Part shown: positions 1 through 5,722 of the stretch, piece by piece | How the letters are laid out: every line of letters starts with the position of its first letter | How positions within the stretch are numbered: position 1 is the stretch's first letter | IMG/VR virus record: IMGVR_UViG_2695420503_000022 | Origin: a virus | Lineage: Duplodnaviria; Heunggongvirae; Uroviricota; Caudoviricetes | Strand: one strand, 5' to 3' | DNA: 5,722 nt | Position numbers and translations under genes: made by a program | The notes under the pieces: generated by a model | Database searches by the model: none | Seen by the model: only the letters and a program-made list of their open reading frames with translations | What the model was told of the DNA's origin: nothing

Positions 1-66
1 GCAACCCTGACAAAAGTTGGGCGGGATATTCTTGCGAAATCGACCGTTGCCGCCGTTATCGAATAA
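1..66 (+). pseudogene. Orphan 3' end of a second side-tail-fibre constant-region copy, ending at TAA 64..66 (left boundary off-window)
   Basis: Frame 1 reads [21 protein letters not shown]. Nt 1..65 are the exact reverse complement of 3972..4036 inside the minus-strand stf gene (...[26 protein letters not shown]...). Where the active gene continues TAC CTC (Y L), this copy has TAA followed by an A-run. Confidence 0.6.
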
Positions 67-90
67 AAAAAAAAAACGGAAACGGTAAAC
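56..90. other. Degenerate crossover-site relic of recombinant (inverted-state) type: Sc-side half-site, A-tract in place of the core, then the Sv'-side flank
   Basis: 56..65 TTATCGAATA equals the Sc-proximal half of the 3956..3981 site (reverse complement). 78..90 GGAAACGGTAAAC is identical to 897..909 (end of the 875..900 site plus first Sv' codons). The two matches are colinear with no gap, but the 12 nt between them are A11C instead of CCTCGGTTTACA. Confidence 0.55.
65..76. repeat. A12 homopolymer tract
   Basis: Twelve consecutive A directly visible; it occupies the position of the crossover-site core in the relic. Confidence 0.9.
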
Positions 91-139
91 TTTTGAACCT
101 TATCCCGCGGCGTTACATGGTCAATTTGATTCCATTTCC

Positions 140-439
140 ATGTTTTACCTTCTTCACTGCCTGCCTGGAAATATATCTACAAAAAGCTGTGTAATACGCA
201 ATGCGGCGCAGGCCTTAACTGACGATGGAACTCTATACGGAGCCACAATTCTTGGCGATGGAGTTGTGCACAATAGCTTCGGTCAAAAACTGATGCGCAT
301 TTACAATCAGAAAGGCATCTTTTCAAACACAAAAGATTCCGAAGAAGGCTTAACACATATACTCTCAGAGCATTTCGAGAATGTTAAAACCAAGGTTCAA
401 GGTACTGTAGTAATGTTTTCCGCTTCAGGGAAAAAATAG
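140..439 (+). CDS. Hypothetical 99-aa protein, unassigned; possible cargo/moron gene
   Basis: Only sizeable ORF in the 67..493 gap; stop TAG 437..439. No purine-rich Shine-Dalgarno within 15 nt of the ATG (tttgattccatttccATG). No recognisable family from the translation. Composition looks AT-richer than the tail-fibre genes. Confidence 0.3.
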   Translation: MFYLLHCLPGNISTKSCVIRNAAQALTDDGTLYGATILGDGVVHNSFGQKLMRIYNQKGIFSNTKDSEEGLTHILSEHFENVKTKVQGTVVMFSASGKK

Positions 440-446
440 CATCCAA

Positions 447-479
447 CCGCAGCACGTTCTTGCTTAAGACGTGCTGCGG
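447..479. terminator. Strong stem-loop (11-bp perfect stem ccgcagcacgt / acgtgctgcgg); probable terminator of the ancestral stf-tfa operon (minus strand)
   Basis: Perfect 11-bp inverted repeat with 11-nt loop. It lies 15 nt 3' of the tfa-remnant stop (494..496, minus) and 8 nt 3' of the ORF99 stop (plus). On the minus strand a T6 run follows about 10 nt after the stem; no T-run on the plus strand, so not a canonical intrinsic terminator in either direction. Confidence 0.4.
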
Positions 480-493
480 CATAATCCCAATGA

Positions 494-586
494 TTACTCC
501 CTGACAGGGTTCGTAGGCCACTCAATATCAGGTGCAGTTGATGTATCAACACGGTTCAGCAACACCCGATACTTTTTCCAGGCTTC
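494..586 (-). pseudogene. tfa: C-terminal remnant (~30 codons) of a third tail-fibre assembly (Tfa) gene, fused in frame behind the invertase remnant
   Basis: Minus-strand translation in the pin frame reads [30 protein letters not shown] (stop 494..496). It shares the E-W-x-x-Y ... RVDT ... EWP pattern with the C-termini of both in-window tfa genes ([25 protein letters not shown]; [27 protein letters not shown]) and matches my recollection of the lambda Tfa C-terminus. Confidence 0.7.
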
Positions 587-820
587 CACCACCAGCACGA
601 CAAGATGCCGCATACAGTGAACCAGTCAGTCCAGTTTTCAGACAACCAGTGCGTCACCTTTTTGAAGGCGCTTTAAAGCACGTTTTAATCCAGGTCGGCC
701 TGTCCTTGTTCCGCTTAATTTATCTTCAAATATTTGTTCATATCCTGCACAAACAAGAGCGTTTCGTTGCAGATCTGTATTCTGGTCATTTGTTGATACC
801 CTTACATAGCCAATCAGCAC
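587..820 (-). pseudogene. pin: Serine DNA invertase (Pin/Gin/Hin/Cin family) remnant: N-terminal ~78 codons with two in-frame TGA stops, 3' part deleted
   Basis: Translation [76 protein letters not shown] matches the invertase N-terminus as I recall it (MLIGYVRVSTNDQ...DTLVVWKLDRLGRSMKHLISLVGE), with TGA at 638..640 where Trp is expected and TGA at 626..628 where Arg is expected. Likely start is GTG 818..820 preceded by GGAG (the ORF track extends to another GTG at 844). The catalytic Ser in YVRVSTNDQ is present, but the rest of the catalytic domain and the C-terminal DNA-binding domain are absent. Confidence 0.8.
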
Positions 821-874
821 GCTGAATCTCCCGTCCAAAAGCACAAATCATGCCATACAGGCCAGAAACCGCCA

Positions 875-900
875 TTATCTAAAACCTCGGTTTACAGGAA
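875..900. other. 26-bp invertase crossover site (gix/pix-like), invertase-proximal
   Basis: TTATCTAAAACC TC GGTTTACAGGAA: imperfect dyad around a 2-bp core. It matches the gix/hix-type site as I recall it and matches the reverse complement of 3956..3981 at 22 of 26 positions. It is read in frame into the Sv' cassette. Confidence 0.8.
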
Positions 901-1914
901 ACGGTAAACAAGGCTGGTAACGCCGTTCAGCGTTCCGGCGATAAAATGACCGGAGAACTGAAAATTGGCACGGTGAATGCGCTGCGAATTTTCAATGATG
1001 CCTTCGGTCTTATTTTCCGTCGTTCAGAAGATTTTCTTCATTTCATTCCGACGGCTGAAGGACAAGGCGAAAACGGTGATATAGGCCCATTAAGGCCATT
1101 CGCTATAAATCTGAGAACAGGTGCTATATCTGTCAGCCACGGGGCCAAAATTGATGGTGGGCTGGCGCTTGGTACAGATAACGCACTGGGCGGTAATTCC
1201 ATTACTCTCGGAGATAACGACACTGGTATTAAACAGGGCGGCGACGGTGTCCTTTTATTCTATTCAAATGGACAACTGGCATTTGGGCTTCAACCCGCAT
1301 CTGCTGATTTTTATAAGCGGGTTGCATATATTCATCAGGGAATAATTCCTGATGGAAGTGGCGCATTTGCAGACCAGTTGAATAATGCCACCGCGCCTTT
1401 TGTTCAGACGCAGTTTGCCTGGAATCCCACTCCTGGTGGTCATTACGTGCCGATAGTTAAGGGCTTGTCCATTCGCAATGGACAGGGCTATCCCGGCGCG
1501 GTCAGCTTTGGGTATTTACTGACAGAACAGTATGGATTTCCGGTTCCATGTATTCATATGCGTGGCGATGGCGGTAATGATGCTTTATGGCAGTTTAACC
1601 CGAACGATAAATCCTTTATTTCACCGGGTGCTCTTATTGCGGGTGGCGTCCGTTATAACACCGATGGAAATATATTTGGTGGGTGCTGGGGTTCAAACTT
1701 AAATGATTACCTGAATAGTTCTTTTATCAGAAATGTGCGTCTGGGAGGCAGACGTTCTGACACATTATATCGCGGAGGACTTTGCGAACCAGGTAATGGT
1801 CATGTGACAACAGGATTGCAAATTATTGGTGAGGTTGATGGAGATGACTGGATGGTGTCACGACCACTACAAAAATACATTTCTGGTAACTGGTATAACG
1901 TTGAACAGGCATAG
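889..1914 (+). CDS. Alternative tail-fibre C-terminal receptor-binding cassette (Sv'), promoterless and start-less in this orientation
   Basis: Open frame runs continuously from the crossover core (GGT TTA CAG GAA ACG ...) to TAG 1912..1914; the ATG at 946 is in this frame but probably incidental. Shares ALGGNSI[TV]LGDNDTG[IF]KQ[GN]GDG and a C-terminal QKYI[SN]G[NT]WYNV with the expressed cassette. Inversion would fuse it to the stf constant region. Confidence 0.8.
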   Translation, partial: GLQETVNKAGNAVQRSGDKMTGELKIGTVNALRIFNDAFGLIFRRSEDFLHFIPTAEGQGENGDIGPLRPFAINLRTGAISVSHGAKIDGGLALGTDNALGGNSITLGDNDTGIKQGGDGVLLFYSNGQLAFGLQPASADFYKRVAYIHQGIIPDGSGAFADQLNNATAPFVQTQFAWNPTPGGHYVPIVKGLSIRNGQGYPGAVSFGYLLTEQYGFPVPCIHMRGDGGNDALWQFNPNDKSFISPGALIAGGVRYNTDGNIFGGCWGSNLNDYLNSSFIRNVRLGGRRSDTLYRGGLCEPGNGHVTTGLQIIGEVDGDDWMVSRPLQKYISGNWYNVEQA

Positions 1915-1929
1915 CCATCAGGAGAATAT

Positions 1930-2457
1930 ATGCAACATCTGAAAAATATTACCGCCGGAAACCCCAAAACCATTGAGCAGTATCAGCTTACGAAAAAAGC
2001 TGGCGTTATCTGGCTATATACAGAAGACGGTAAAAACTGGTATGACGAATTAAAAAACTTTCAGGATGATACTTTAAAAATAGCTTATGACCAGAAGGGG
2101 ATTATTCGTTGTATTGAGAAAGACGTATCAACACTTAACCCTGACGGGTTAAGTGTTGTTGAGTTACCGAATATAACAGCCAACCGTCGCGCCGATATCT
2201 CGGGAAACTGGAAGTTTCTGGATGGTAAAGTAGTAAAGCGGGAATATACAAAACAGGAACTGCAACAGCAGGCAGAGTTACAAAAAGCCGCTTTGCTTTC
2301 CGAAGCGGAGTCTGTGATTCAACCGCTGGAACGTGCTGTCAGACTGAATATGGCAACTGATGAGGAACGCACACGACTGGAATCATGGGAACGCTACAGC
2401 GTTATGGTCAGCCGTGTGGATACTGCAAAGCCTGAATGGCCACAGAAACCAGAATAA
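1930..2457 (+). CDS. tfa: Tail-fibre assembly chaperone partnered with Sv' (Tfa/U' family)
   Basis: 175 aa; AGGAG at 1920..1924 five nt before the ATG. N-terminus [38 protein letters not shown] is a close paralogue of the minus-strand tfa and Mu U-like; typical Tfa C-terminal motif. Confidence 0.85.
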
Positions 2458-2466
2458 CAACAAATT

Positions 2467-2486
2467 AAGGCCCGTACGGGCCTTTT
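2467..2486. terminator. Bidirectional intrinsic terminator between the convergent tfa genes
   Basis: aaGGCCCgtacGGGCCtttt: GC stem with a 4-nt loop, T-run on the plus strand and a T-rich tail (aatttgttg) on the minus strand. It sits in the 30-bp gap between stop 2455..2457 and stop 2488..2490. Confidence 0.55.
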
Positions 2487-2487
2487 C

Positions 2488-3021
2488 TTATTCTGGTGGT
2501 TCCGGGAATGTTACAGGAAGAACCGAGGTATCAGTTGTCTCAACCTGTTGCACGTATCGCATCCAGTTCATCAGTTGCTGTCTGTCTGAATCAGTGATAA
2601 TCCCCAAAGTAAGCTGTGTTTGCCAGAACTGCGTTTTTTCTCTGGCCTGCTGTAATAATATTTTTTTCTGGTTTTCCGTCTGTAGGCGCAACTCTTCTTC
2701 GGTATATACACGTTTAATGACTGCGCCATCTTTAAACATCCATTTACCTGAGTCGTCAGCACGCCGGTTGGCGGTAATATCAGGAATCTCAACGACGCTA
2801 TAACCTTCAGGGTTAAGTGTGGAGGCATCTTTGGTTATGGCAACAATAATATTATTTTCATCGTAAACAATCTTTATGGTGTCTGGCTGAAAGTTTTTCA
2901 CTTCCTCATACCAGTTTTTTTCGTCCTCAGAGTAAAGCCAGATAACTCCGTGTTTCTTTGTTAACTCATACTGTTCCAGTGTTTTAGCATTACCCGCTTT
3001 TATGTTCTTTAAGTGCATCAT
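2488..3021 (-). CDS. tfa: Tail-fibre assembly chaperone for the currently expressed fibre (Tfa/U family)
   Basis: 177 aa; its ATG (3019..3021) lies one nt after the stf stop (3023..3025), indicating translational coupling. N-terminus [59 protein letters not shown] resembles Mu U / Tfa proteins as I recall them. Confidence 0.9.
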
Positions 3022-3022
3022 A

Positions 3023-5722
3023 TTAAACGCTCGCTACATTATACCAGGTGCCATTTATATACTTTTGAACGGGTCTGTAATAAACGCCCGCTATATTATC
3101 GGCAGAGTTAGACCCTGTATCCTGAACATTAATACCAGACAATACATGACCTGAAGGGCACCGGAAATACCATGTTTGCCAGTTGTTCACTCCATAATAT
3201 TGCTGTGAACCAAGTCGAACATCTTTCACATAACGGGAATCAAAGTTACCGTAATCCGAGGGGTTAACACGCCCTGTAATATTTATGGTTTTATTACTTT
3301 GAATGCTTCCGGAGACAAAGCGCATAACATGGACGTTATTAGCATAAACATCCAGATTACCATCGCCATTTTGTTTAAAGCCCGTGTCATTATCACCCAA
3401 TACAATCGAATTACCGCCAAGAGCACTGGATGTTCCGATACCCAGTGTACCATTCAGTTGACCACCAGATAACGGCAGTGCACCAACATCTCCTGCTGAA
3501 GGTTTTCTGGTGGTGGTGTAAAATTCGGACCAGTCGGCTTCAAAACCATAACCATCACGGGCTGAACGATAAAAAACACCGCCATTTTTATAATTAATCC
3601 GAAACTGAGCTGCAGGACAACTTCCTTCTCCCATATAAAAATGAATAATTAACGTTGATGCACCACTAATAGTTGCGTTATAGGCTCCGCTACTCCAGTT
3701 CCATCCAACTGCTTTATCATTCGCAACGGTGCTTCCTGTTTTCCCTAAGGCAAACGCACCAACATGACTTGCTTTTAATGTGATATCGGAGGAACCATCA
3801 AAAGCCACATTGCTTATTTTCCTGGCAGTTTTTAATTTTGCAGCTGTAGAAGCATTGCCGGATAGTTCACCAGAAAGGCCACCGCTGAATGTTTGTCGAT
3901 TAGTCCAGGTATTCGCTGTACTGAGTAACGGTATTTTCTCCCCGCTTGTGCCGAGTTCTCGTAAACCGAGGTATTCGATAACGGCGGCAACGGTCGATTT
4001 CGCAAGAATATCCCGCCCAACTTTTGTCAGGGTTGCCAGACTGGCAACATCATTCCCCGTAAAATACGGAAACCTGTCTGCCGCAGTAGCAAGCCCGGCC
4101 AGCGCCGTCAGGGTGGCATCTTTCGGTTGCTTACCCGCAAGCGCGTTAGTCATGGTGGTCGCAAAATTCGGGTCGTTGCCCAACGCCGCAGCCAGCTCGT
4201 TCAGCGTATTCAGTGCGTCAGGCGACGAGTCCACGAGGGCAGCGATCGCAGCCATAACATAAGCCGTGCTTGCGATTTGGGTATTATTCGTTCCCTGTCG
4301 CGCAGTTGGTGTTGTTGGCGTTCCGGTCAGTGCAGGACTATTTAAGGGCGCTTTCTTGTTCGTTTCACCCATTACCGCCTTAACCGCTTTTGGCGTTGCC
4401 GCCAGTGACTCGGAAGTGCTGTTGGTCGCACTGCTGAGCTGTACTATCCCCTTTTTCGTCGTGCTCGCATCCTCCAGCGCCACGGCGGATGCAATATCCT
4501 CTGCCCGTTTTGCTGCTGTCTCGGCGCGCGTTGCCGCGGATTCCGCCGTACTTTTGCTCTGAGCTGCCGCCGTCACACTACCAGCTGCCTCTGATGCTTT
4601 CATTGTTGCTGTCGTGGCACTACCTTTCGCTGCTGACGCTTGTCTGGTCGCCTCATCTTTTGAAGCAGACGCAGATGATGCCGATGACGCCGCTGAACTG
4701 GCTGACGATGCGGCTGCCGCCTTAGAGGAAGCAGCATTGTCTGCTGAAGTCTTTGCATTTGTTTCAGAGGTTTTTGCTGCAGAAGCAGACCTCGCTGCTG
4801 CAGTGGCTTGCTCAGTGGCTTTGCCAGCCTTCGTTGTGGCTGTTGAAGCGGATGATGCGGCGCTTTCTGCCGATTTTCCGGCGGCGGTGGCACTGGCTGA
4901 GGCCTGCCCGGCACTTGTTGACGCGGCACTGGCAGACGACGCAGCCGCTGTTTTTGAGCCTGCCGCAGCCGAGGCGCTCTGTCCCGCTGCCGTTTCAGAA
5001 GACCTGGCGTTTGTCTCAGACGTCTTTGCCGCCTTCGCGGAATTGCCTGCCGCCGTTGCCGAGGAAGCGGCACTACTGGCGCTTGATGATGCGTTCGTTT
5101 CTGATGATTTCGCTGCCTCTTTTGAGGCCGCCGCATCCCGGGCTGAGGTGGCTGCTTCTGACGCCTTCGTGGTCGCGGCGGATGCAGAAGTGGCTGCTGA
5201 TTGTTGTGACGCTGCCGCATTCGTTTCTGACGTTTTCGCCGCAGCGGCACTGGTAGCTGCCGCGCTTTTTGAGGACTCTGCAGCAGCAGCACTTTTCGAT
5301 GCTTCACTGGCCTTTGTTGATGCCGTTCCTGCGCTGGAAGACGCTGACTGAGCCGACGACGCGGCCTGTCCGGCTGACGTGCTGGCGGCACGTGCTGAGG
5401 CTGCAGCATCGGTTGCATGAGTTACCGCCTCGCTGGCTGATGCACTGGCATCGCTGGCTGATTTTTTCGCGGCTGCCGTATTCTGTGCAACCGCGGAGGC
5501 GTTACGTGACACTTCTTCCACCATCTGCTCAAAGCGGCGCAGTGCCTCCGGTCGGACATCATCCTCCGTCATGGCACCGAGAAAATCATTCAGCGTACCT
5601 GGTCTGGAACCTTCATAGACGGTAATGGTCCCGGCATGTGAAGGCGGAAAACCTTCAACCAGCAGGGTGACGCTGTACTGACCATGCTCAACATCCATGC
5701 TGTAACGTCCGGCTTCATCCGG
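3023..5722 (-). CDS. stf: Side tail fibre protein (lambda Stf-like), 5'-partial: constant region (3970..5722) fused through the crossover site to the Sv cassette (3023..3967)
   Basis: The open frame continues past the first in-window Met to the window edge (...[37 protein letters not shown]...). N-terminal domain and the KTSETNA-containing Ala/Ser-rich shaft resemble lambda Stf / E. coli StfR as I recall them. The C-terminal part carries the [13 protein letters not shown] motif and ends ...[14 protein letters not shown]. Confidence 0.9.
3956..3981. other. 26-bp invertase crossover site inside the stf coding sequence (codons I-E-Y-L-G-L-R-E)
   Basis: Plus strand TTCTCGTAAACC GA GGTATTCGATAA; its reverse complement TTATCGAATACC TC GGTTTACGAGAA matches the 875..900 site at 22/26 with an identical TC core and lies in inverted orientation to it. 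Confidence 0.8.
3972..4036. repeat. Right arm of a 65-bp perfect inverted repeat (left arm 1..65)
   Basis: Reverse complement of 3972..4036 is identical to 1..65; identity breaks at position 66 versus 3971. Confidence 0.85.
4530..5500 (-). repeat. Low-complexity Ala/Ser/Thr-rich periodic repeat region encoding the fibre shaft (approximate bounds)
   Basis: The protein shows reiterated A-A-K-T/S-S-E-T-N-A units and A/S/T runs. At DNA level, degenerate ~27-bp repeats of the type gcNgcaaaaacNtcNgaaacaaatgc (minus sense) recur at about 4747, 5030, 5095 and 5225. The GC-rich, stop-poor sequence generates long spurious ORFs in other frames. Confidence 0.7.

Follow-up and report, generated by a model that had tools for sequence, protein, structure and literature searches.

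A 99-codon open reading frame beside an invertible prophage tail-fibre segment is most probably the dead 3' stump of a ybcY-family methyltransferase gene

The window in this study is a 5,722-nucleotide stretch of viral DNA (Duplodnaviria; Heunggongvirae; Uroviricota; Caudoviricetes; IMG/VR record IMGVR_UViG_2695420503_000022), taken at its full length. It contains an invertible segment, in which two alternative tail-fibre ends and their tfa genes are flanked by gix/pix-like crossover sites. The right crossover site (869..900) has its partner at 3956-3987, and the two sites (TTATCTAAAACCTCGGTTTACAGGAA and TTCTCGTAAACCGAGGTATTCGATAA) form an inverted repeat of 32 nt that is 84% complementary. 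The expressed tail-fibre gene occupies 3023-5698 on the minus strand. The Ala/Ser-rich repeats of the constant part of the tail fibre, with families of 26-nt and 20-nt direct repeats, are found at 4600-5420. The long open reading frames (ORFs) over this region, 245 aa on the plus strand and 272 aa on the minus strand, are shadow ORFs and not genes. The alternative fibre end Sv' (946-1914) and its tfa gene (1930-2457) are intact ORFs in the window, and they are frameshifted in the annotation of Escherichia coli WS3294A (locus 4796-6365). The aligned lengths of the window and WS3294A are 2 nt apart over 5.6 kb at 100.0% identity, which suggests that the WS3294A frameshifts are homopolymer errors in assembly.

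Two gene remnants, both on the minus strand, are located to the left of the right crossover site. The stump of a serine invertase of the Pin/Gin type (641..844) retains the N-terminal 68 codons and matches positions 2-69 of 145 of the Resolvase profile (E = 4.6e-15); RefSeq annotates it as a 183-bp 'recombinase family protein'. The tfa remnant (497..613) is a C-terminal end only, matching positions 104-130 of 131 of Caudo_TAP (E = 5e-13), and RefSeq annotates it as a pseudogene in identical sequence. The WS3294A record has untrimmed overlapping ends and shows the invertible segment in both orientations. The presence of both orientations, though the invertase of the element itself is a stump, suggests flipping in trans by the invertase of another prophage.

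The ORF of interest occupies 140-439 on the plus strand. It starts with ATG and has 99 codons, exactly as reported in a preliminary description of this DNA. In the ORF listing, it is the longest ORF between the copy of the constant tail-fibre end (Sc) at 1-65 and the tfa remnant. The preliminary description regarded it as the only candidate gene of that stretch; it is indeed the longest, and RefSeq also annotates, in identical sequence, a 45-aa 'hypothetical protein' (WP_001309429.1) at window positions 384-521 on the minus strand. The latter ORF overlaps the 3' end of the 99-codon frame, crosses the downstream hairpin, and has no Pfam match; it is probably a spurious call. The tfa remnant, the invertase remnant, and the expressed tail-fibre gene are all encoded on the minus strand, so that the ORF is convergent with the tail-fibre genes, as proposed. 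The strong hairpin said to separate them was also found. It lies at 447..479 (CCGCAGCACGT...ACGTGCTGCGG), between the stop codon of the ORF and the tfa remnant, and has a folding energy of -23.9 kcal/mol (z = -5.85; none of 200 shuffles folded equally well). No T-run is present 3' of the hairpin on the plus strand, and the terminator scan gave no result there. The hairpin is identical in WS3294A and in phage ev243, where it occupies the same place 3' of intact copies of a methyltransferase gene.

The ORF has a GC content of 41.0%, compared with 48.5% for the whole window. The GC content is 50.5% for the hairpin plus the tfa remnant, 43.5% for the invertase remnant, 44.4% for the left block, and 41-46% for the invertible segment. 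The ORF is therefore AT-richer than its neighbours, as the preliminary description held, and the difference is modest against the invertible segment. No Shine-Dalgarno (SD) sequence or convincing promoter had been recognised, and this observation was borne out. Pairing with the anti-SD sequence was estimated at +0.6 kcal/mol for ATG140 versus -7.4 for the tfa gene at 1930. A simple-consensus scan, which weak promoters could escape, returned no promoter-like site in window positions 1-950. A non-coding RNA in 1-950 was considered and rejected; Rfam gave sub-threshold matches only, all on the minus strand and overlapping the hairpin and the tfa remnant, namely CssrB at 448-510 (32.6 bits vs a gathering score of 76) and IS009 at 537-616 (47.5 bits vs a gathering score of 117). 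Both probably arise because these families were built from related prophage sequence, to which the window is partially similar.

The length of the ORF is weak evidence on its own, because a complete ORF of at least 99 codons arose in 3.9% of shuffles of positions 1-520. The frame is nevertheless real, since the profile search matched the 99-aa product to positions 120-218 of the 218 positions of phrog_2132 (E = 1e-67). Only the C-terminal 45% of this family of ~218 aa is thus represented in the window. When window positions 1-950 were compared with complete E. coli genomes by megablast, thousands of matches were obtained, every one starting at base 91 and falling under a gene annotated 'class I SAM-dependent methyltransferase'. 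Lambdoid phages, e.g., ev243 and 2G7b, gave the same pattern of matches from base 91 in the phage records. The intact methyltransferase gene is 669 nt long in both E. coli WS3294A and phage ev243. In a three-way alignment with these two, window positions 91-520 matched the 3' portion of the intact gene, and the hairpin that follows it, at 100% identity; to the left of the 90/91 boundary, no similarity to the intact gene was seen.

The first homologous base is 91, which is the third position of codon 107, and the breakpoint at 90/91 corresponds to codon 107/108. According to the alignment and translations, an in-frame methyltransferase remnant (92..439, plus strand) comprises codons 108-222 and the stop codon. 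The reading frame of the ORF is that of the intact gene, and ATG140 is the internal Met124. An in-frame TAA at 86-88 shuts the methyltransferase frame upstream; Met124 is the first in-frame start after this TAA, which accounts for a 99-codon ORF that spans Met124 to Lys222 and the stop codon. Searches of Pfam, NCBIfam, and PADLOC with the 99-aa product gave no significant match. NCBI already lists an identical 99-aa sequence as 'putative AdoMet-dependent methyltransferase; DLP12 prophage (fragment)', in a cluster of 96 entries named 'methyltransferase, partial'. The ORF had been described as unassigned, a status that does not agree with this entry. As judged from sequence comparison, the gene is one already known and annotated, and its family is ybcY / WP_000240999.1 / phrog_2132. 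We conclude, with a probability of roughly 0.93, that ORF 140-439 is what remains of the 3' end of a prophage accessory gene rather than a gene of its own, and that it is almost certainly dead. No sequence decay is evident in the stump, which is 100% identical to the intact copies; hence, the loss either happened very recently or did not happen in the organism.

The intact gene product has 218 aa, or 222 aa if counted from the first ATG. The position of the promoter suggests that the second ATG is the real start, giving 218 aa, and this length agrees with the PHROG profile and with most homologues. Of 5,426 complete E. coli genomes, 3,799 (~70%) contain the gene with a coverage of at least 80%; there are up to four copies per genome, and the identity is always at least 95%. 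Most of the listed homologues have 215-230 aa. Those from other genera of Enterobacterales (Salmonella, Citrobacter, Enterobacter, Klebsiella, Yersinia, Erwinia, and Pantoea) have 217-230 aa, with identities down to 56%. Listed homologues with lengths well outside this range are fragments, for the most part of E. coli and Shigella origin. Many residues are invariant in the homologue alignment, both before and after Met124. For the intact protein, Methyltransf_12, _23, _25, and _11 all score above their Pfam thresholds over residues 52-182 (37.5 bits for Methyltransf_12 vs a cut-off of 30); the 99-aa product contains no Pfam methyltransferase domain above the gathering score.

The intact protein was modelled by AlphaFold with a pLDDT of 90.6 and a pTM of 0.87. 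A Foldseek search of the PDB with this model returned only small-molecule and lipid class I methyltransferases (probability 1.00, TM 0.55-0.66). A sequence search of the PDB gave weak similarity to JHAMT and UbiG (E about 1e-3). In PADLOC, the sole match of the intact protein was mad2, which was non-significant (E = 0.0091, 12.9 bits). From the predicted structure, we are confident that the intact protein has the fold of a small-molecule type class I methyltransferase. A role as a DNA methyltransferase or in defence was dropped on the PADLOC, Pfam, and fold results.

In the window, nothing 5' of codon 108 is present, and a 90-nt patch stands in its place. The promoter, the ribosome-binding site, the start codon, and the conserved N-terminal helices are absent with the 5' part, as are motif I (LDIGVGTG), the acidic residue ending beta2, and strands beta1-beta4. 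A sigma-70 promoter of ybcY, TTGATT-17-TATAAC, was identified by genomic SELEX in the H-NS-bound ybcY/tfaX spacer (PMC3946193). This sequence is readable just 5' of the start in the intact loci and is missing from the window; ORF 140-439 has neither a promoter nor a ribosome-binding site of its own. Motif I, the glycine-rich loop (GxGxG), is formed by LDIGVGTG at residues 58-65 of the intact protein, 5' of the breakpoint, and is absent here. The acidic residue for SAM ribose at the end of beta2 is the nearly invariant D81 (LMDLN), in the deleted part. In the AlphaFold model of the intact protein, beta1 spans residues 56-60 and is followed by motif I; beta2, beta3, and beta4 span 76-81, 99-104, and 119-125, respectively. 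The ORF opens in the last residues of beta4, so that only beta5-beta7 of the seven-stranded core and their helices are kept. Lacking a promoter and an SD sequence, the stump should not be produced to any meaningful extent. Lacking the SAM-binding half of the modelled Rossmann-like sheet, its product could not be expected to bind SAM or methylate a substrate. Read-through transcription from the left of position 1 may reach the stump.

An exact-protein look-up of the 99-aa product returned 115 blocks of assemblies. Ten loci from this look-up were examined; eight had identical ORF DNA, and one further locus was a contig end. Each of the eight retains a 5' half of the gene that is disrupted (in one, as far as the contig reaches). 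The lesions are TTA115 to TAA (n=4), AAA to TAA (n=1), and frameshifts (n=3). The junction of the window at 1-90/91 was in none of the loci from the look-up. Conservation of the ORF in relatives that keep the surrounding sequence had been put forward as a check. It went against an independent gene: close relatives with the same surroundings never show the 99-codon unit, and carry the full-length gene or the full-length gene with point lesions. Going by these loci, the 99-codon ORF is a recurrent by-product of lesions 5' of Met124 and not a conserved unit. In natural E. coli, genes of the ybcY family are repeatedly pseudogenised by differing lesions, ybcY of K-12 included, despite the presence of the gene in ~70% of genomes.

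The patch at the left edge (1-90) is composed of three pieces. Positions 1..65 (plus strand) are a perfect inverted copy of 3972-4036 (65 nt, 100%) and represent the end of Sc together with the first 10 nt of the crossover site (TTATCGAATA). The frame in this piece ends in ...AAVIE and is followed by TAA (64-66). The patch matches in complete E. coli genomes all end at base 65. Positions 66..77 consist of A11, which makes a run of 12 A with base 65, and C. In the flipped Sc/Sv' junction, precisely these 12 positions are taken by the crossover core CCTCGGTTTACA. Positions 78..90 (GGAAACGGTAAAC, plus strand) directly repeat 897-909, which are the opening bases of Sv' beyond the right crossover site. 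At 90/91, the breakpoint into the methyltransferase gene shows no microhomology. More than 380 genomes, WS3294A among them, carry the unaltered flipped junction at 100%. The 1-90/91 junction was absent from 5,426 complete E. coli genomes (megablast and blastn), phage records, and plasmids, and exact patterns across the two junctions gave no match in GTDB representatives, JGI metagenomes, or IMG/VR.

Several simpler routes to the patch were considered and rejected. In a clean exchange of the Hin/Gin type at a pseudo-site in ybcY, the identity to the crossover site would not stop 2-4 nt before the central dinucleotide, as it does here, and the core has been replaced, not recombined. Nor can one inversion between the Sc site and ybcY account for the junction, because the remainder of the window (91-5722) would then no longer follow the reference arrangement. 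A fusion of the Sc-like frame (1-66) to the methyltransferase frame is precluded by the TAA at 64-66 and by stops in the methyltransferase frame at 8-10 and 86-88.

As the source of 1-90, a chimeric contig end and a genuine, very recent rearrangement have about even odds in our view. If the contig end is chimeric, the truncation would stem from a chimeric read or from an artefact of amplification or editing, and the true genome would carry the intact gene. The absence of the junction from every collection searched is in keeping with such an artefact, as is the position of the patch at the extreme edge of the window. The other 5,632 bases (91-5722) are 100.0% identical to WS3294A, in which the methyltransferase gene is intact. 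The patch is made wholly of pieces of the window, with its core swapped length for length for an A-run. Both orientations of the segment occurred in at least one sequenced culture, and molecules with the flipped junction were thus available for mis-joining. However, the 90/91 boundary has no shared sequence on which a graph assembler could mis-join, and three oddities within 90 nt are equally awkward for an artefact and for biology. Among real events, it seems unlikely that a trans-acting serine invertase reacted aberrantly on the flipped Sc/Sv' site, put an A-tract in place of the 12-nt core, and fused the site into the middle of ybcY. If this did take place, it would have removed the ybcY promoter and the SAM-binding half and left an orphan second constant end of the tail fibre, and the patch would be an unusual trace that illegitimate recombination by an invertase has left in a prophage. 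An artefact would count only against truncation in vivo and would not touch the identity of the ORF; whichever origin applies, the 99-codon ORF is part of ybcY.

Two further explanations concern the function of the ORF. An independent, expressed small accessory or defence gene read from ATG140, i.e., cargo comparable to mom of Mu or mcrA of e14, would fit an intact ORF with a GC content below that of its neighbours, a hairpin 3' of its stop codon, and a position where prophages carry morons. We regard it as very improbable: the ORF equals residues 124-222 of a longer conserved protein, stands alone as a unit in no relative, has no SD sequence or promoter, and by itself gives no match in PADLOC, Pfam, or NCBIfam. 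By the model, its product would begin where a beta-strand of a Rossmann-like fold ends and would lack the SAM-binding half, and the intact protein resembles small-molecule methyltransferases, unlike DNA-modification or restriction enzymes. We give even less credence to a stump that is weakly translated from read-through and has acquired a new role, e.g., interference with the intact YbcY of other prophages in the cell. With up to four gene copies per E. coli genome, a cell with the stump could also hold intact copies, and the stump does keep the well-conserved C-terminal part. Against such a role, oligomerisation of the protein is hypothetical, and translation signals are absent at the stump; moreover, the recurrent and varied lesions in other strains resemble neutral decay, not selection for the fragment. 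The dead 3' stump of a ybcY-family gene is hence the reading that we retain.

The result is a clean negative, in that an orphan-looking 'cargo' ORF is a fragment of a very common, annotated prophage gene. For that reason, it should not go forward as a candidate new gene. The interpretation of the locus as an accessory cargo gene is partly supported. Relatives do have an accessory gene at this site, beside the tail-fibre/invertase module at the prophage end, as the preliminary description anticipated. The gene proposed there was small and novel; the ORF is instead residues 124-222 of a protein of 218/222 aa whose family occurs in about 70% of complete E. coli genomes. Of wider relevance is the intact ybcY-family methyltransferase, which is this widespread in E. 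coli, is often multicopy, has a confidently predicted small-molecule type fold, and is repeatedly broken.

The closest known counterpart is ybcY of E. coli K-12 (b0562), a pseudogene of the DLP12 cryptic prophage that lies between tfaD and tfaX and is annotated as a 'putative SAM-dependent methyltransferase'. It shares 99% nucleotide identity with the window copy over 91-591, has the same downstream hairpin, and adjoins tfa remnants. The two copies differ in the extent of damage; the K-12 gene keeps its whole body and is dead by lesions at the 5' end, whereas the window copy has no codons 1-107 and no promoter. WP_000240999.1, gp26 of phage ev243 (YP_009910063.1), and phrog_2132 represent the intact class I methyltransferase of lambdoid (pro)phages; they are 100% identical to the window copy over the 115 retained codons, but are full-length (218/222 aa) and possess motif I and the N-terminal helices. 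Among solved structures, the folds nearest to the intact protein are juvenile hormone acid methyltransferase (7ec0), phosphatidylethanolamine N-methyltransferase (8ys9), and SgvM (8rpr), together with NodS (3ofk), phosphoethanolamine methyltransferase (3uj7), and UbiG (4kdr). Sequence identity to these enzymes is just 12-21%, and the likeness does not specify a substrate; the window stump lacks the half of the fold on which the comparison rests. Mom is a DNA-modification enzyme, and McrA is a restriction nuclease. The analogy drawn to mom of Mu and mcrA of e14 applies to map position only, namely an accessory gene by an invertible tail-fibre/invertase module near a prophage end. It does not extend to the protein, for the intact YbcY-family enzyme has a predicted small-molecule type fold and a PADLOC match that is non-significant, and its significant Pfam matches are generic class I methyltransferase domains only.
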